DNA from: a virus
Lineage: Duplodnaviria; Heunggongvirae; Uroviricota; Caudoviricetes
Length of the DNA stretch: 24,148 bases
Direction: 5' to 3' (one strand)
IMG/VR virus record: IMGVR_UViG_2778261504_000003
Location: 1-24,148 of that record
Made by a program: the position numbers and the translations under genes
The notes under the pieces: model-generated
Told to the model about the DNA's origin: nothing
Databases searched by the model: none
What the model saw: only the letters and a program-made list of their open reading frames with translations
In this document: positions 8,760 through 15,622 of the stretch, piece after piece
Layout: each line of letters starts with the position of its first letter
Position numbering within the stretch: the stretch's first letter is position 1

Positions 8760-9077
8760 TTAACAGATTGACTGAATTCCGTTTTTCTCAACCACAGAAA
8801 GCAAACGAAGGGCAGGGCCACCAGGGCGCTTTATTCCCCTTTCCCAGTCTGAAATGAGGTTTTTACTGACATTAAGATATCTGGCGAAAACAGGTTGAGA
8901 CAGATGCTCGCGCTCGCGAAGTGCCCGGATTCTTTCTGGCGACATTGTTGGCGCTGGTTGCAGACAGAGTTCATCAAACTCTCTCATAGTTTGTTTTGTA
9001 ACTGCGCCAATATCCTGAAGTGACTCCATCATTTCATGTACGGATGCAAGTGCATCACTGCGGTAATTTTTACTCAT
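8760..9077 (-). CDS. Type II antitoxin, XRE/HigA-like HTH DNA-binding protein (105 aa)
   Basis: C-terminal HTH SPERIRALREREHLSQPVFARYLNVSKNLISDWERGIKRP. Overlaps the 3' end of the upstream toxin gene by 8 nt. Confidence 0.75.
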   Translation of the reverse strand: MSKNYRSDALASVHEMMESLQDIGAVTKQTMREFDELCLQPAPTMSPERIRALREREHLSQPVFARYLNVSKNLISDWERGIKRPGGPALRLLSVVEKNGIQSIC

Positions 9078-9441
9078 TGGGTACCTCCGTAAACTGACCT
9101 TGCAGGATCAATTGCGCCAGTTGTTCATCAGTAAGATTGAGAACGTGATGCGCAGCTTTTCGAAATGCGTTTTCCTCGATGGCTGTAATATTTTCTCTCT
9201 CATTCTTTGCGTACGCATAGATGAAAAAAGCCTTTTCTGCGACGCGGTAAAAAATTATTGTCCTATAACCGCCTGATTTACCGCCACCTCTTCGGGCTAA
9301 TCGCTGCTTAATGACACCACTACCCAAATCTGCGGATATGAGTCCCTTATCAGCTAGTTCCACGACTTCTCGCAGAGCTTTATCGGAAATCCGATTTTTT
9401 CGTGCGAAGCGTTCAAACCAGGCATTTTTGAAAATGCGCAT
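9070..9441 (-). CDS. Type II toxin, RelE/ParE superfamily (HigB-like gene order, toxin first)
   Basis: Internal Met of track ORF 9070..9585 gives MRIFKNAWFERFARKNRISDKALREVVELADKGLISADLGSGVIKQRLARRGGGKSGGYRTIIFYRVAEKAFFIYAYAKNERENI..., typical of RelE/ParE-fold killer proteins paired with an HTH antidote. Alternative start 4 codons upstream. Confidence 0.75.
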   Translation of the reverse strand: MRIFKNAWFERFARKNRISDKALREVVELADKGLISADLGSGVIKQRLARRGGGKSGGYRTIIFYRVAEKAFFIYAYAKNERENITAIEENAFRKAAHHVLNLTDEQLAQLILQGQFTEVPNE

Positions 9442-10260: not shown

Positions 10261-11319
10261 GTGCGGGTATTACTTCGACCTGTTCCGGTACCGGAACTCG
10301 GGCTGGTGGTCCTTAAGCCTGGTCGTGAATCCATGCAGGTATTTCATAACCCTCGAGTGCTGGTGGAGCCGGAACCGAAAAGCATGCGCGGTCTGCCGTC
10401 CGGGGTCGTTCCTGCCGTTCGCCAGCCGGTGGCGGAGGATAAATCATTACTGCCATTTTTCAGCGACGAACGAGTGATTCGTGCTGCTGGTGGCGCTGGC
10501 GCATTGTCTGACTGGTTACTGCGCCATGTTAAATCCTGCCAGTGGCCACACGGCGATTATCACCACAGTGAAACCGTCATTCACCGTTATGGTACCGGCG
10601 CAATGGTGTTGTGCTGGCACTGCGACAACCAGCTGCGTGACCAGACATCCGAATCACTCGAGCAACTTGCTCATCAAAACCTGTCAGCATGGATGATTGA
10701 CGTCATCGGTCACGCAATAAGCGGTACGCAGGAGCGTGAATTATCTCTGGCTGAATTATCCTGGTGGGCTGTCCGCAATCAGGTGGCGGACGCGCTACCG
10801 GAAGCGGTATTACGTCGTTCGCTGGGGTTGCGTGCGGAAAAAATCCGCTCAATGTACCGTGAAAGCGACATCGTACCGGGAGAGCAGACCGCTACCAGCA
10901 TACTGAAGCAGCGCACAAAAAATCTTGCGCCGTTGCTTCACACCCACCAGCCACAGAACCCAGCACAGGAAAAGACGGTGGTCAGTATTGCCGTTGATCC
11001 GGAGTCACCGGCTCAGTATATCCAGCGCCAGAAACCACAACGGGAAGAGATGCCTGTATACACGCGCTGGGTAAAAACGCAGAAATGCATGACGTGCGGT
11101 AATCAGGCAGATGATCCGCATCACATCATTGGTCATGGACTGGGAGGGATGGGAACAAAGGCGGATGATTTGTTTGTTATTCCGCTGTGCCGTAAATGTC
11201 ATAACGAACTGCACGCCGGGGTAAAAGATTTTGAAGAAAAACACGGCAGCCAGCTGTTGTTGCTGATTCGTTTTTTAATGCACGCGAGAAATTCGGGTGT
11301 CCTGAAGTGGAAAGCATGA
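10261..11319 (+). CDS. DUF968-family protein (YdfU-like) with C-terminal HNH-like Cys/His motif
   Basis: GTG 10261 preceded by GGAGG with a 4-nt spacer. C-terminus CMTCGN...HHIIGHGLGGMGTKADDLFVIPLCRKCHNELH. Position upstream of rusA and Q as in Qin. Confidence 0.75.
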   Translation: MRVLLRPVPVPELGLVVLKPGRESMQVFHNPRVLVEPEPKSMRGLPSGVVPAVRQPVAEDKSLLPFFSDERVIRAAGGAGALSDWLLRHVKSCQWPHGDYHHSETVIHRYGTGAMVLCWHCDNQLRDQTSESLEQLAHQNLSAWMIDVIGHAISGTQERELSLAELSWWAVRNQVADALPEAVLRRSLGLRAEKIRSMYRESDIVPGEQTATSILKQRTKNLAPLLHTHQPQNPAQEKTVVSIAVDPESPAQYIQRQKPQREEMPVYTRWVKTQKCMTCGNQADDPHHIIGHGLGGMGTKADDLFVIPLCRKCHNELHAGVKDFEEKHGSQLLLLIRFLMHARNSGVLKWKA

Positions 11320-11685
11320 ATGACTGAACGCATAGAATTTGTTTTGCCTTACCCGCCGACGGTGAACACCTACTGGCGACGTCGTGGCAGCACATATTTT
11401 GTATCAAAAGCCGGTGAGCGTTATCGCCGGGATGTGGCACTTATTGTTCGCCAGCAGCGGCTGAAATTAAACCTGTCCGGAAGGCTGGCAATAAAGATTA
11501 TTGCAGAGCCACCGGATAAGCGCCGTCGGGACCTGGACAATATTCTGAAAGCACCGCTGGATGCGCTGACGCATGCGGGACTGCTTATCGACGACGAGCA
11601 GTTTGATGAAATCAATATTGTGCGCGGTTTGCCTGTTCCTGGTGGGCGGCTGGGCGTGAAGATTTACAAAATTGAAAGTGAGTGA
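11320..11685 (+). CDS. rusA: Holliday junction resolvase RusA
   Basis: MTERIEFVLPYPPTVNTYWRRRG...DKRRRDLDNILKAPLDALTHAGLLIDDEQ... matches RusA, including the catalytic RRRDLDN motif and size (121 aa). ATG overlaps the upstream stop. Confidence 0.9.
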   Translation: MTERIEFVLPYPPTVNTYWRRRGSTYFVSKAGERYRRDVALIVRQQRLKLNLSGRLAIKIIAEPPDKRRRDLDNILKAPLDALTHAGLLIDDEQFDEINIVRGLPVPGGRLGVKIYKIESE

Positions 11686-11693
11686 GCGTAAAT

Positions 11694-12248
11694 ATGATAT
11701 ACCCGGAAATTACAGGCAAAAGCGGTGAGCATTTACGCCTGAAAACGCTGGAAAGTGTCTGGCTCCAGGGGAAACTGCGTATGTGGGGGCGTTGGTCGTA
11801 TATTGGCGGCGGTAAGACGGGAAATATGTTCAACCAATTACTGACCTCTAAAAAGCTGACGAAAACGGCAATTAACGAGGCGCTCCGGAGGATGAAAAAA
11901 GCGGGTCTGGACAAACCTGAACTTGAGGCTTTTTTGCGGGATATGATCAACGGCAATCAAAAAAGCTGGCTGGCACATTGTACCGATTCAGAGGCGTTAA
12001 TAATCGACAGGGTTATTGGTGAAGCCCTGGCAGGTTATCCCGGGCTGCTCAATGTCCTGAGTCAGCGTTATGTGGGGCGGGGGATGACTAAGCGCAAAAT
12101 GGCTGAACTGCTGAATGATGCACACCCGGAATGGAGTTTAAGAACCTGTGAAAGACGCATTGAGCATTGGCTAAAGGTGGCAGAATTTATTTTGTACAAA
12201 CCAATGGTTATGGCTTTTGGTATAGAGAAAAAAGTTATTGCTTTTTGA
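11694..12248 (+). CDS. Late-gene antiterminator Q-like protein
   Basis: Position between rusA and the terminator/late region; size about 184 aa. Start at ATG 11694 preferred over GTG 11682. Family assigned by position and general similarity only. Confidence 0.7.
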   Translation: MIYPEITGKSGEHLRLKTLESVWLQGKLRMWGRWSYIGGGKTGNMFNQLLTSKKLTKTAINEALRRMKKAGLDKPELEAFLRDMINGNQKSWLAHCTDSEALIIDRVIGEALAGYPGLLNVLSQRYVGRGMTKRKMAELLNDAHPEWSLRTCERRIEHWLKVAEFILYKPMVMAFGIEKKVIAF

Positions 12249-12325
12249 CGTAAAAACTGCTTCAATTCCGGTACGCTTCGCAAAGCTGTACCGCGAGGCG
12301 AATAGCAGACATGGACATTTGAAAG

Positions 12326-12349
12326 AGCCCGCTTTTTGCGGGTTTTTTT
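12326..12349 (+). terminator. Intrinsic terminator downstream of Q (tR'-like)
   Basis: CCCGC, TTTTT loop, GCGGG, followed by 7 T. Confidence 0.65.
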
Positions 12350-12472
12350 ATGCCTGAAAAACGGTACAGGACGTTAAACGCGCTGATGGTTGCGAATACC
12401 GGTCTTTCAGCTTGCTGGCTTTTTCGACAAGAGTTATTGGTATGTCACGTTAACCGGAAAAGGGAAAAAGAC

Positions 12473-12670
12473 ATGCTAAAACAGCAGGATATGACCGAAA
12501 CCGCCAGAGTGGTGTTTAATGAATTAAGCGTCACCGAACCGGCGACCGTCGGGGAAATTGCGCAGAATACTTACCTTTCACGCGAACGCTGCCAGTTAAT
12601 ACTGACCCAGCTTGTTATGGCGGGTCTGGCAGATTATCAGTTCGGTTGTTACAGACGCCTTCCGCAGTGA
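12473..12670 (+). CDS. Hypothetical small protein (65 aa), possible wHTH
   Basis: Internal ATG 12473 with GA-rich RBS (AAAGGGAAAAAG) in track ORF 12350..12670. The upstream part of that ORF runs through the terminator U-tract, so the shorter start is preferred. Confidence 0.4.
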   Translation: MLKQQDMTETARVVFNELSVTEPATVGEIAQNTYLSRERCQLILTQLVMAGLADYQFGCYRRLPQ

Positions 12671-12820
12671 AGGCTTTTTAATTTGTGGTAATGGGCGGCT
12701 GGTGGGTGTTAGCGGCACCTATCAGCCATCTGCTCATGCGTTGGGGTCACAAGCAAACCTCTGGCCCATCTGCTTTGCGCAAAAGCGGTATGAGCCTATC
12801 AGAGAAGTGCTTATTGATCT

Positions 12821-13873
12821 ATGGTTAATACTGTAAAAATATCCAGTTGTGAGTTAATCAACGCTGATTGCCTGGAATTTATCCAGACCTTACCGGAAAA
12901 CTCTGTCGATCTGATAGTCACAGACCCGCCATACTTTAAAGTGAAGCCCGAGGGCTGGGATAACCAGTGGAAGGGCGACGATGATTACCTGAAATGGCTG
13001 GATCAGTGTCTGGCGCAATTCTGGCGGGTACTGAAACCTGCCGGAAGTCTCTACCTGTTCTGTGGTCATCGCCTGGCATCTGACACCGAAATCATGATGC
13101 GTGAACGCTTTAATGTGCTGAATCACATTATCTGGGCGAAACCGTCCGGGCGCTGGAACGGGTGTAACAAGGAAAGCCTGCGGGCGTATTTCCCGGCAAC
13201 AGAACGCATTCTGTTTGCTGAACATTATCAGGGACCATATCAGCCCAAAAGTGACGGCTATGCGGCAAAAGAAAGGGAACTCAAACAGCACATAATGGCA
13301 CCGCTGATATCGTATTTCAGGGATGCTCGTGCCGAACTGGGTATAACGGCAAAACAAATTGCCGAAGCCACAGGTAAGAAAAATATGGTTTCCCACTGGT
13401 TTGGTGCCAGTCAGTGGCAGTTGCCGAATGAGGCTGACTATCGGAAGTTACAGGCACTGTTTTCCCGTATAGCGGCAGAGAAGTTTCAGGAACAACAACT
13501 GGAACAACCACACCACCAGCTGGTGGCATCTTATGATTCACTGAATCGCAAATATTCTGAATTGCTGGATGAGTTTAAATCTCTCCGGCGCTATTTCTCC
13601 GTATCAGTCTCCGTGCCTTATACCGATGTCTGGACGCATAAGCCCGTTCAGTTCTACCCGGGTAAACATCCGTGCGAGAAACCGGCGGATATGCTCCGGC
13701 AAATAATCAATGCCAGTAGTCGACCTGGTGATCTGGTTGCTGATTTCTTTATGGGATCCGGTTCCACAATAAAAGCAGCAATGGCGCTGGGGCGTCGGGC
13801 GTTAGGTGTTGAACTTGAGTCAGAGCGGTTTAATCAGACGGCGAAAGAGGTAAGTGAACTGGTGGGGAAATAA
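12821..13873 (+). CDS. DNA methyltransferase, N6-adenine/N4-cytosine amino-MTase family (motif IV before motif I)
   Basis: DPPY motif near the N-terminus (LIVTDPPYF) and AdoMet-binding FxGxG motif near the C-terminus (DFFMGSGSTIKAA). Located between Q and the lysis cassette, where lambdoid phages commonly carry a methylase. Confidence 0.85.
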   Translation: MVNTVKISSCELINADCLEFIQTLPENSVDLIVTDPPYFKVKPEGWDNQWKGDDDYLKWLDQCLAQFWRVLKPAGSLYLFCGHRLASDTEIMMRERFNVLNHIIWAKPSGRWNGCNKESLRAYFPATERILFAEHYQGPYQPKSDGYAAKERELKQHIMAPLISYFRDARAELGITAKQIAEATGKKNMVSHWFGASQWQLPNEADYRKLQALFSRIAAEKFQEQQLEQPHHQLVASYDSLNRKYSELLDEFKSLRRYFSVSVSVPYTDVWTHKPVQFYPGKHPCEKPADMLRQIINASSRPGDLVADFFMGSGSTIKAAMALGRRALGVELESERFNQTAKEVSELVGK

Positions 13874-13880
13874 TTCTGGT

Positions 13881-13906
13881 GGCCACGTTGCGTGGCCTTT
13901 TTATTT
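13881..13906 (+). terminator. Intrinsic terminator between the methyltransferase and the holin
   Basis: GGCCACG, TTG, CGTGGCC, followed by TTTTTATTT. Confidence 0.6.
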
Positions 13907-13949
13907 CCAACACAGCACCCGCAAATATCGCGAGGTGAGAGATGACGAA

Positions 13950-14285
13950 ATGCCTCATAACCCAAATACCTGGCCGGACTGGCTGGAGTTGTTTCAGAGC
14001 TGGTGGCGTGGAGACACACCGCTGGGTGCAGTGATTATGTCGATCGTTATGGCTGGTTTGCGCATCGCCTATTTTGGCGGTGGTGGTGGCTGGAAGCGAA
14101 AAACGCTCGAGATTTTGCTCTGTGGCGCTCTGACGCTGACCTTTGCATCCGCTCTTGAGTATGTCGGATGGCCTAAATCACTTTCTGTTGCTATTGGTGG
14201 CGGCGTGGGGCTGATCGGTGTCGATGCTATTCGTGGGGCTGCAATGCGAGTAATCGGTAACAAGTTTGGTGGCTCTAAGGAGTAA
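13950..14285 (+). CDS. Holin (three predicted TM segments, class I-like)
   Basis: Immediately upstream of endolysin R. Three hydrophobic stretches (LGAVIMSIVMAGLRIAYF, TLEILLCGALTLTFASAL, LSVAIGGGVGLIGVDAI) and a charged C-terminus. Start at ATG 13950, because the longer track ORF would read through the terminator. Confidence 0.8.
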   Translation: MPHNPNTWPDWLELFQSWWRGDTPLGAVIMSIVMAGLRIAYFGGGGGWKRKTLEILLCGALTLTFASALEYVGWPKSLSVAIGGGVGLIGVDAIRGAAMRVIGNKFGGSKE

Positions 14286-14288
14286 TTT

Positions 14289-14765
14289 ATGCAGGTACTA
14301 AATTCCCAGCGTAAAGCTTTCCTCGATATGTTGGCGTGGTCAGAAGGAACGGATAACGGGCGACAGCCAACCCGCAATCACGGCTACGACGTTATTGTAG
14401 GTGGTGAGCTATTCACGGATTACTCCGATCATCCTCGCAAACTTGTCACGCTAAACCCGCAACTTAAATCAACCGCAGCTGGACGTTACCAGCTTCTTTC
14501 CCGTTGGTGGGATGCCTACCGCAAGCAGCTTGGCCTGAAAGACTTCTCTCCGAAAAGCCAGGACGCTGTTGCACTGCAGCAGATTAAAGAGCGTGGCGCT
14601 TTACCAATGATTGATCGCGGTGATATTCGTCAGGCTATCGACCGTTGCAGCAATATCTGGGCTTCACTGCCGGGCGCTGGTTATGGTCAGTTCGAGCATA
14701 AAGTTGGCAGCCTGATTGCAAAATTCAAAGAAGCAGGCGGAACGGTCAGAGAGATTGAGGTATGA
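14289..14765 (+). CDS. R: Endolysin R (lambda-type lytic transglycosylase)
   Basis: Near-identical to remembered lambda R over almost its whole length ([50 protein letters not shown]...). Confidence 0.92.
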
Positions 14766-15229
14766 GCAGAGTAACCGCGATTATCTCCGCTCTGGTTATC
14801 TGCATCATCGTCTGCCTGTCATGGGCGGTTAATCATTACCGTGATCACGCCATCGCCTACAAAGAACAGCGTGATAAAAAAGTCGGTGAGCTGAAGCAGG
14901 TGATCGCCACCATCGCTGACATGCAGCAGCGTCAGCGTGATGTTGCTGCGCTCGATGCAAAGTACTCGAGAGAATTAGCTAATGCGAAAGCTGAAAATGA
15001 AACTCTGCGCGCTGATGTTGCCGCTGGTCGTAAGCGCCTGCGGGTCAATGCCAGTTGCTCCGCAGCCGTGCGTGAAGCCACCGGACCCACCAGCGTGGAT
15101 AATGCAACCAGCCCCCGACTGGCAGACACCGCTGAACGGGATTATTTCACCCTCAGAGAGCGGCTGATGACGATGCAGATGCAACTGGAAGGGGCACAGG
15201 AGTATATCCGCACTCAGTGCATTAAGTAG
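14762..15229 (+). CDS. Rz: Spanin inner-membrane subunit Rz
   Basis: [28 protein letters not shown]... and C-terminal [19 protein letters not shown] closely match lambda Rz. ATG overlaps the R stop. Confidence 0.9.
14982..15167 (+). CDS. Rz1: Spanin outer-membrane lipoprotein Rz1, embedded in the +1 frame of Rz
   Basis: [22 protein letters not shown]...[30 protein letters not shown] matches lambda Rz1, including a lipobox-like LVVSAC and a Pro-rich body. Confidence 0.85.
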
Positions 15230-15271
15230 CCTTTTTATCGTGGTAAACATTTCGCAGGGTATGAGGTATTT

Positions 15272-15622
15272 ATGCCATCACTAATCCCACGCGCCTGCCG
15301 TAAGCGTGGATGTGCAGCTACAACCACAGACAGTTCTGGTTACTGCGATAAACATCGTGGCGAAGGATGGGCACAGCATCAGCGCGGACTGAGTCGCCAC
15401 CAGCGAGGCTATGGCTCGAAATGGGATGCCATACGTGCGCGCATACTGAAGCGTGATAATCATCTGTGTCAGAACTGCCTGCGCAATGGGAGAGCCGTTG
15501 AAGCCAGAACTGTGGACCACATCATTCCGAAAGCTCATGGTGGCACGGATGCAGACAGTAACCTGCAGAGTCTGTGCTGGCCCTGTCATAAAGCAAAAAC
15601 AGCGCGCGAACGCATCAATTGA
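15272..15622 (+). CDS. HNH endonuclease (packaging-associated)
   Basis: CQNCL...VDHIIPKAHGGTDADSNLQSLCWPCHKAKT HNH motif. Located immediately upstream of the terminase genes, as in HK97-like phages. Confidence 0.85.
   Translation: MPSLIPRACRKRGCAATTTDSSGYCDKHRGEGWAQHQRGLSRHQRGYGSKWDAIRARILKRDNHLCQNCLRNGRAVEARTVDHIIPKAHGGTDADSNLQSLCWPCHKAKTARERIN

Follow-up and report, generated by a model that had tools for sequence, protein, structure and literature searches.

A candidate leader RNA with two alternative folds upstream of an M.EcoGII-type adenine methyltransferase gene in a lambdoid prophage of Escherichia coli

The 24,148-nucleotide (nt) stretch of the IMG/VR virus record IMGVR_UViG_2778261504_000003 analysed here, hereafter the window, is a Rac/Qin-like lambdoid prophage of Escherichia coli in which a DNA methyltransferase gene (12821-13873) follows the Q-like late antiterminator gene (11694-12248) and precedes the lysis genes. 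Between Q and the methyltransferase lie an intrinsic terminator (12326-12349) and a small open reading frame (ORF) for a winged-helix protein (12473-12670), a second intrinsic terminator (13881-13906) follows the methyltransferase, and the gap in front of the methyltransferase start codon holds the element of main concern, a putative leader RNA (12690-12820); all these features are on the plus strand. Many lambdoid phages share this interval as a cargo module, inserted between the terminator of Q and the lysis genes, and the methylase islet taken alone is ordinary and already annotated in the literature and in databases. The new part is the gap, which carries a candidate cis-regulatory RNA with two conserved alternative folds.

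The methyltransferase, of 350 amino acids (aa), matches PF01555 over profile positions 1-220 of 221 (E = 4e-43, 148.3 bits against a cut-off of 26.7), the two halves of the profile being separated by an insertion of approximately 130 residues. The DPPY motif is found at residues 35-38 (VTDPPYF, 33-39) and the FxGxG motif, as FMGSG, at about 310-314 (DFFMGSGST, 308-316), and the order of an N-terminal DPPY, a central target-recognition domain and a C-terminal FxGxG is that of the beta class, to which the nearest solved structures, RsrI, CcrM and MboIIA, also belong. Aligned over its full length with M.EcoGII, the reference sequence of which was machine-read with a few reading errors from the PDF of Table S1 of PMC11551740, the protein is identical in 291 of 349 positions (83%; 92% positives, 2 gaps), and the alignment shows both motifs intact, which answers the reservation of the first-pass annotation that the catalytic motifs might be mutated. 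The protein is almost certainly a member of the M.EcoGII family of beta-class N6-adenine DNA methyltransferases and not a generic site-specific enzyme; its earlier designation as an amino-methyltransferase stands.

With respect to function, the enzyme is predicted by homology to methylate adenine in any sequence context, as M.EcoGII methylates adenine irrespective of the surrounding sequence (PMC5778455). The M.EcoGII gene resides on a prophage of E. coli O104:H4 C227-11 and is silent in the lysogen; its relatives in prophages of E. coli and in enterobacterial phages form 'a very large family', the presumed role of which is to defeat host restriction (PMC5778455); the protective role that had been suggested for the window's orphan enzyme is hence the function already proposed for a close relative. 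Constitutive expression of M.EcoGII is deleterious (PMC5778455; for the deleterious and prophage-silent traits see also PMC12707154). As to how the native gene stays silent, the original paper says only that it is switched off in the lysogen, and neither a leader RNA nor a small upstream ORF nor the position relative to Q is described there (PMC5778455). M.EcoGII and M.EcoGI (Murray et al., 2018; PMC5778455) share with the window's enzyme the beta-class order of motifs, a length of 349-350 aa, 83% identity and the status of a prophage-borne orphan, and the difference consists in the 17% sequence divergence of the window allele.

The methyltransferase is an intact orphan, as had been claimed before: DPPY and FxGxG are present, the neighbours are Q, the winged-helix ORF and the holin, and no restriction endonuclease is annotated by RefSeq in the identical 24,148-bp stretch of NZ_CP148401. 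The nucleases of the window are a DUF968/HNH protein (10261-11319), which is also present in phages without the methylase, RusA and a terminase-associated HNH protein (15272-15622). The latter, located beside the P27-family small terminase, shows weak matches to the HNH domains of IscB and ZorE; it is the usual packaging-associated HNH and no restriction partner of the methylase.

Compared with phages phiP27, SfV and mEp460 and the Citrobacter phage phiNP, positions 12685-12820 are near-invariant while the neighbouring small ORF diverges, and over 50 loci the leader averages 73% identity to the window versus 43% at the four-fold degenerate sites of the adjacent gene. Relatives of the methylase at 60-92% identity are encoded at 80 loci of one-genome-per-species contigs, and a single-sequence nhmmer search placed the leader directly 5' of the ATG in 51 fetched loci, out to Morganella and Proteus. 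A covariance model of the leader, built from 43 sequences, finds one full-length copy per locus, scoring 101-178 bits and always ending at the methylase start, in 52 genome or phage loci and in 100 of 100 IMG/VR loci, with no further match elsewhere in the window. Among 120 pattern matches in IMG/VR, 112 are followed by the methylase at a distance of 118-134 nt, which in 101 cases is 129-131 nt; of the remaining eight, two are at contig ends, one is a remnant and five are due to chance. All true matches, in the genome as in the IMG/VR loci, precede the methylase, and the leader was not found 5' of any other gene.

None of the 4227 families of Rfam 15 matches 12660-12850 at E <= 10, nor was there any match over the leader at E <= 1 when 11000-15500 was searched, and no description of the leader was found in the literature covered, that is, in open-access papers. 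Inspection of the sequence shows no Shine-Dalgarno motif before the methylase AUG. Positions 12690-12820 are very probably a structured leader RNA under selection, and the non-coding gap of 150 nt which the first-pass annotation had seen here gives way, on the identity values and on the covariation described below, to a conserved RNA leader.

In Photorhabdus (among loci L051-L078), where the methylase relatives are 64-67% identical, the leader is shortened to approximately 100 nt and retains segment a, hairpin P1 and segment b (defined below) and little else, with covariance scores of 13.8-30 bits, while the Xenorhabdus loci of the same group gave no match to the covariance model and their upstream sequence was read by eye. 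A GATC (Dam) site at 12815-12818, just 5' of the methylase ATG, is kept in at least 90% of the leaders; its conservation is accounted for by pairing with GGTCA/GATCA in segment c, and it may in addition have a role at the DNA level.

Two mutually exclusive folds of the leader share the constant hairpins P1 (12697-12727, strands 12697-12708 and 12716-12727) and P3 (12770-12788, strands 12770-12776 and 12782-12788) and differ in the partners of six segments, namely a (12691-12696), b (12731-12738), c (12744-12755), d (12763-12769), e (12790-12796) and f (12808-12820). In fold A, a pairs with d (12692-12696 with 12764-12768), b with c and e with f, which results in a three-way junction and two hairpins. 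In fold B, a pairs with b and lengthens P1, d pairs with e and encloses P3, and c pairs with f. Segment f consists of the 13 nt immediately 5' of the AUG at 12821 and is paired in fold B, while fold A leaves the last six nt before the AUG free.

Pair counts and covariation were obtained for both folds in the same alignments. P1 has undergone compensatory change wholesale in Proteus; across the alignment, GGCTGGTGGGTG/CACC..CCAGCC is replaced by GACTGTAAAAGTG/CACCTTTACAGTC and GACAGTGAGGATG/CATCCCCGCTGTC. In the 52 genome or phage sequences, the pairs specific to fold A are formed in 93.2% of cases, compared with 24-40% after a shift of the partners by 1-3 columns, and those specific to fold B in 93.5%, compared with 28-43%; cells with a double change number 32 for fold A against 7.8 +/- 2.3 in shuffles, and 23 for fold B against 6.7 +/- 2.2. 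The 48 distinct sequences of the IMG/VR set gave 94.4% paired for fold A and 93.7% for fold B, with slid-partner pairing, in both collections together, of 24-41% (A) and 28-45% (B), and the double-change cells exceed all 500 shuffles for both folds and in the two independent collections. One column of segment c even covaries with both of its partners, with UA41/CG7 in the pairing with b and AU44/GC4 in the pairing with f. The extreme conservation of the leader is explained by the need of each strand for two partners.

The two folds are also balanced energetically, as the ensemble free energies with either b:c or c:f enforced differ by 1.0 +/- 3.4 kcal/mol, fold A being lower in 19 of the 52 sequences. 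When the partner of c is fixed, the probability of being unpaired at positions -6 to -1 is 0.50 in fold A compared with 0.10 in fold B. That the leader acts as a two-state translational gate has, in our view, slightly better than an even chance. The centre of P3 (12770-12788) is in 91 distinct leaders (L001-L196) always a self-complementary 4-6-mer (GCGC, GTGCAC, GTCGAC or AACGTT). A loop does not require a palindrome to close a hairpin, and the motif could promote an RNA dimer through kissing loops, could be an operator in duplex DNA for a dimeric protein or could stem from quasi-palindrome correction in replication.

The short direct repeats that had been noticed in the gap are real and local: in the whole 24-kb window, where 0.26 and 0.44 occurrences were expected, CCATCTGCT (12726, 12766) and CCTATCAG (12718, 12795) have exactly two copies each, and all of these lie in the gap. 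The two copies of CCATCTGCT contain the segments b and d, each of which is complementary to a, and the first copy of CCTATCAG is the 3' strand of P1, so that the repeated words arise because the strands pair with two alternative partners; they are by-products of pairing not kept elsewhere rather than an incidental feature of a spacer. An ordinary orphan-methylase islet, in which the gap is a spacer and the words repeat by chance or represent DNA iterons or operators, for instance for the winged-helix protein encoded next door, would be in line with this local occurrence, with the presence of three 18-nt copies about 40 nt apart and with the DNA palindrome in P3, the centre of which is palindromic in all variants as would be that of an operator binding a dimer. 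As, however, the repeats are lost in other genomes (SfV has CCATTCGCT/CCCACTGCT and the Proteus copies are without similarity) while the complementarity of distant segments is held by compensatory changes, and as the leader is unchanged in 15 loci without the winged-helix gene, we regard such an islet as unlikely. A leader peptide translated from the invariant ATG at 12692 within segment a, which would control the methylase gene by its own translation and which in the window has a frame of 45 codons with a stop overlapping the methylase start, is even more improbable, and indeed the least probable of the readings considered here: the frame varies from 3 to 45 codons and has only 7 codons in 23 of the 52 sequences, the peptides are unrelated past MGGWWVL, indels shift the frame, the Trp codons are lost in Proteus and inspection of the sequence reveals no properly spaced Shine-Dalgarno motif. 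A protein-coding reading of the gap was rejected and a conserved peptide excluded, the frames from this ATG being non-homologous beyond the first 7 codons.

Other readings accept the RNA and assign it a different role. A metabolite riboswitch for S-adenosylmethionine (SAM), S-adenosylhomocysteine (SAH) or a nucleotide, with the three-way junction of fold A as the aptamer and the c:f helix as the expression platform, would account for the highly conserved joining nucleotides, for an alternative helix that occludes the start region, for the occurrence of the leader without the small protein in 15 loci and for the SAM dependence of the regulated gene. Its probability is nevertheless small, as the 4227 Rfam families, which include all SAM and SAH classes, gave no match at E <= 10, most of the conserved nucleotides that appear unpaired are accounted for by two alternative partners, and the restriction to one gene family in prophages of Enterobacterales is unusual for a metabolite riboswitch. 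No more probable is autoregulation, whereby the methyltransferase binds or methylates its own leader, shifts the fold and caps its own synthesis: M.EcoGII acts on RNA, on single-stranded nucleic acid and on duplex DNA (PMC5778455, PMC11551740), and the leader is strictly linked to this methylase family and to nothing else, but a non-specific enzyme has no obvious way to recognize one particular RNA. A still smaller probability is given to an element of processing or stability, for example an RNase III site in the hairpin of approximately 20 bp formed by a:b and P1, or to a precursor from which a small RNA acting in trans would be made. Small RNAs are known to arise from the late leaders of prophages, fold B has a long, near-continuous helix and one related signal exists in the form of the weak isrK-like match at 12275-12348, yet this leaves unexplained the covariation of c:f beside the start codon and the set distance from the ATG, which is 129-131 nt at 101 of the 112 pattern-match loci with the methylase.

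The small ORF upstream of the leader encodes a stand-alone winged-helix protein of 65 aa (12473-12670), which is the RefSeq call in the identical prophage and has homologues of equal length; a 106-aa ORF from 12350 was discarded, the conserved ORF being the 65-aa form. Its AlphaFold2 model (pLDDT 91) displays helices H1-H2-H3 and a beta wing, and Foldseek returns generic winged-helix matches only, to N-terminal dimerization domains of methyltransferases, to IclR and MarR and to the RNA-binding winged helices of SelB, which cannot separate DNA from RNA binding. The family (334 matches, in Enterobacterales prophages only) goes under names such as 'TrmB family' or 'DprA-like winged helix' and its PHROG, phrog_331, is of unassigned function in PHROGs; a Cys4 or Com-like zinc-finger motif is absent from the protein. 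Of 86 genome loci, 63 have a winged-helix homologue 5' of the methylase, as have 105 of 120 viral loci, and phage phiSTEC1575-Stx2k has the ORF without the methylase; the small ORF thus forms a cassette of its own which in most cases accompanies the methylase. A regulatory partnership of the protein with the leader is plausible; that it is the effector of the leader, in either direction, is rather doubtful. At loci L021 and L023 (2558-2797), which have no winged-helix ORF, a cysteine-rich protein of 79 aa is encoded directly 5' of the leader; its CxxC...CxxC...CxxC arrangement is zinc-ribbon-like and recalls the zinc-finger protein Com of Mu.

The small ORF has its own conserved non-coding block, CTTGCTG-N12-CAAGAGTTATTGGTATGTC (12411-12447, plus strand; also written CTTGCTG-N12-CAGAGTTAYNTGTRTGTC), about 30 nt 5' of its ribosome-binding site, which is kept from Escherichia to Xenorhabdus and in which TTG, AGAG and TA are invariant in an alignment of 39 sequences from several genera. 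The spacing is promoter-like, with TTG, a 17-nt spacer and TA, and the -10 element is poor; the consensus scan did not call the block a promoter, and no RNA structure was found in it (consensus energy -0.68 kcal/mol, no covariation). As it occurs in 61 of 73 other loci checked and in 0 of the 15 leader-bearing loci without the small ORF, the block is tied to the small ORF and not to the methylase.

Upstream of this cassette, the Q-like gene (11694-12248) belongs to the DUF1133 family (PF06576, E = 4.8e-105) and matches phrog_753, labelled 'anti-termination protein Q-like', with E = 4e-80; a weak match to PF06530, Phage_antitermQ, is also obtained (29.3 bits against a cut-off of 26). The gene lies 3' of RusA and 5' of the lysis genes, which begin with a holin of the lambda family (13950-14285, plus strand; PF05106, E = 2.6e-27, and RefSeq annotation) followed by endolysin and Rz, and the placement of the islet between Q and lysis genes was thus correctly recognized. 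No tRNA genes, as present in Stx phages, were found between Q and the lysis genes of the window. The consensus scan for sigma-70 promoters in 11000-15500 returned 0 against 4.8 expected; the best candidate for pR' found by eye is TTGCTT-17-TTCAAT at 12238-12266, where the scan found no promoter. The interval from Q to the terminator is conserved in prophage L087, which lacks the module and has the same type of Q and holin.

The terminator after Q (12326-12349), GAGCCCGC-UUUUU-GCGGGUUU followed by a U run, is a GC-rich hairpin between A and U tracts (-20.7 kcal/mol, z = -5.3 versus shuffles) that a simple consensus and pattern scan did not list; its position is kept in phiP27, mEp460 and phiNP. 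The terminator that closes the module (13881-13906; -19.1 kcal/mol, z = -3.5), GGCCACG-UUG-CGUGGCC with a 7-bp GC-rich stem and then UUUUUAUUU (the tail also given as TTTTTATTT), was listed by the pattern scan. The record of phage SfV annotates rho-independent terminators at both homologous outer positions, and the two strong terminators claimed by the first-pass annotation are thereby borne out. The one after Q is of the tR' type and would be read through by Q-modified polymerase; it is also common to L087, the homology of which extends to about 12357. It hence belongs to the Q-proximal region that both prophages have, and marks the mosaic junction at the upstream end of the module. The self-contained islet proposed earlier therefore holds as a mosaic unit, for which L087 provides the empty site, but not as an independent expression unit. 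A weak terminator-like site, a hairpin over the stop codon of the small ORF followed by UUUUU (12657-12674, plus strand), was listed by the same scan, its energy being unexceptional (z = -0.8), and its stem covaries across genera (GCCTTC/GAAGGC, GCCTCC/GGGGGC, GCTGCC/GGCGGT, GTCGCC/GGCGGC); this hairpin and its T run had not been mentioned before.

We consider it probable, with a little more assurance than the gate taken on its own, that the window carries an M.EcoGII-type cargo module gated both by Q and by a two-state leader. The methylase would modify adenines with little or no sequence preference, as is suggested by homology, and progeny phage DNA methylated in this way would evade many adenine-sensitive restriction systems together; because the same activity would harm the cell, its expression would be gated. 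At a first gate, modelled on lambda biology, only Q-modified, terminator-resistant polymerase would pass 12326-12349 and the weaker site at 12657-12674, which would leave the gene silent in the lysogen and expressed late. The second gate would be the leader before the start codon, with two exclusive folds of computed near-equal stability. Fold B, assembled from the local hairpins a:b with P1 and d:e with P3, should form first in transcription and would damp initiation, whereas a trigger would shift the leader to fold A, in which b takes c and the six start-proximal nt are freed. By analogy with Com and the inhibitory hairpin of Mu mom, the balance of the folds would set the level of methylase translation, and the 65-aa winged-helix protein would be the best candidate for a trans-acting partner. 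The more far-reaching proposal, that the leader represents a previously undescribed two-state RNA family of M.EcoGII-type genes, triggered by the winged-helix protein acting on RNA, by a small molecule (SAM or SAH, for instance) or by the speed of the Q-modified polymerase, is a tentative one, possible and on balance unlikely.

Several observations weigh against this interpretation. The non-specificity of the enzyme is carried over from M.EcoGII, with which it shares 83% identity. Constraining the partner of segment a only changes the accessibility of the start region little (0.37 versus 0.32), and the AUG itself is unpaired in both folds. The helix a:d, which closes fold A, is invariant and contributes no evidence from covariation, RNAalifold unaided finds no helices but a:d and P1, and the covariation derives largely from one divergent clade (Morganella, Proteus) and therewith from few independent events. 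As 15 of the 52 leader-bearing loci have no winged-helix ORF, the protein is not obligatory for the function of the leader. Between Q and the terminator the consensus scan recognized no pR', so that support for dependence on Q comes entirely from gene order and homology.

The layout proposed here has its closest known counterpart in com-mom of phage Mu, where a small protein encoded upstream opens an inhibitory mRNA structure to allow synthesis of a toxic adenine-modifying enzyme, and homologues of Com are found 5' of non-specific adenine methyltransferases in Mu-like prophages (PMC3299994). Common to both would be, besides the small ORF just upstream, a promiscuous, toxic and late adenine-modifying enzyme and an mRNA structure at the start region that has to be remodelled before translation, although there is no homology, with a winged helix here in place of a zinc finger and a beta-class enzyme in place of Mom or an alpha-class enzyme. 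Furthermore, the Mu RNA is a single hairpin, while the leader of the window is a two-state element of 130 nt, and about 30% of the lineages here do without the small ORF. With lambda late control (Q, pR', tR'), the window shares the Q homologue, a strong terminator directly after it, cargo, holin, endolysin and Rz, and Stx phages carry cargo (stx) at the same place, the same module preceding tRNA genes and stx2e in phiP27; the differences are that Q of the window is of the DUF1133 group and that neither pR' nor a Q-binding element of the lambda type is identifiable by consensus. Two-state leaders of toxic genes, such as the metastable folds of hok type, attenuators and riboswitch platforms, resemble the proposed switch in that helices compete for the same strands, the start region is sequestered and single nucleotides covary with either of two partners; they have no sequence or Rfam relationship to the leader described here.

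M.EcoGII is a widely used reagent, and a conserved bistable leader would offer a concrete and directly testable mechanism for carrying a host-damaging enzyme. The candidate new RNA family comprises more than 150 examples in prophages of Enterobacterales, including Shiga-toxin phages, where the module is on the same late transcript as stx. If the proposal is true, the leader would provide lambdoid phages with a post-transcriptional safeguard against an adenine methylase that acts throughout the genome, and would be a non-homologous re-invention of Mu com-mom.

With respect to the extent of the module, L087 matches the window to 12357 and again from 13915, so that the inserted cargo, which comprises the winged-helix cassette, the RNA leader, the methyltransferase and its own 3' terminator, spans approximately 12358-13914 (plus strand); homology to SfV, phiP27 and mEp460 begins at about 12338. 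Copies of the small ORF and the methylase with 85-95% DNA identity are found in SfV (orf47-orf48), phiP27, mEp460, cdtI, Ayreon and many Stx2 phages. In SfV, phiP27 (L23-L24), mEp460 (gp52-gp53), cdtI and Stx2 phages the same two genes follow Q in the same order, and the records of these phages label them as unknown or as DNA methylase and leave the intergenic region unannotated. The module is found 3' of unrelated Q genes and 5' of lysis genes or of tRNA genes plus stx, with Q upstream and the cargo or lysis genes downstream differing among phiP27, mEp460, Flotzy and phiNP.

The module of the window is itself recombinant. In the comparison of 12338-13873 with L001-L003, the small ORF and the leader are phiP27-like (95-97% DNA identity) and the methylase has its nearest relatives in SfV and mEp460 (94% aa identity, versus 86% for phiP27), and these mixed affinities point to a crossover near the methylase start. 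In phage phiSTEC1575-Stx2k (L005, 3110-4181), the small ORF and the first approximately 74 nt of the leader are kept, and a helix-turn-helix protein takes the place of the methylase, followed by tRNA genes and stx2k.

As to the wider setting, 11682-14285 is 100% identical to the chromosomes NZ_CP148401 and NZ_CP182203. RefSeq gives for the matching 24,148 bp of NZ_CP148401 an early part with exonuclease, kil, ydfABC, repressor-like genes, a RelE/ParE pair, DUF968 and RusA, which continues with DUF1133, a 65-aa hypothetical protein, a 'site-specific DNA-methyltransferase', holin, endolysin, Rz, HNH, terminase, portal, protease, capsid and tail genes, in agreement with the assignments by Pfam and PHROGs. 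Just past Q and up to the terminator, 12275-12348 gives a weak full-length match to Rfam isrK (19.8 bits against a gathering score of 50, E = 0.42), which is treated as unproven; by analogy with the 6S RNA of lambda, a short terminated transcript might be produced there. In the early region of the prophage, a RelE/ParE-family toxin gene and its helix-turn-helix partner are located at 8760-9441 on the minus strand.

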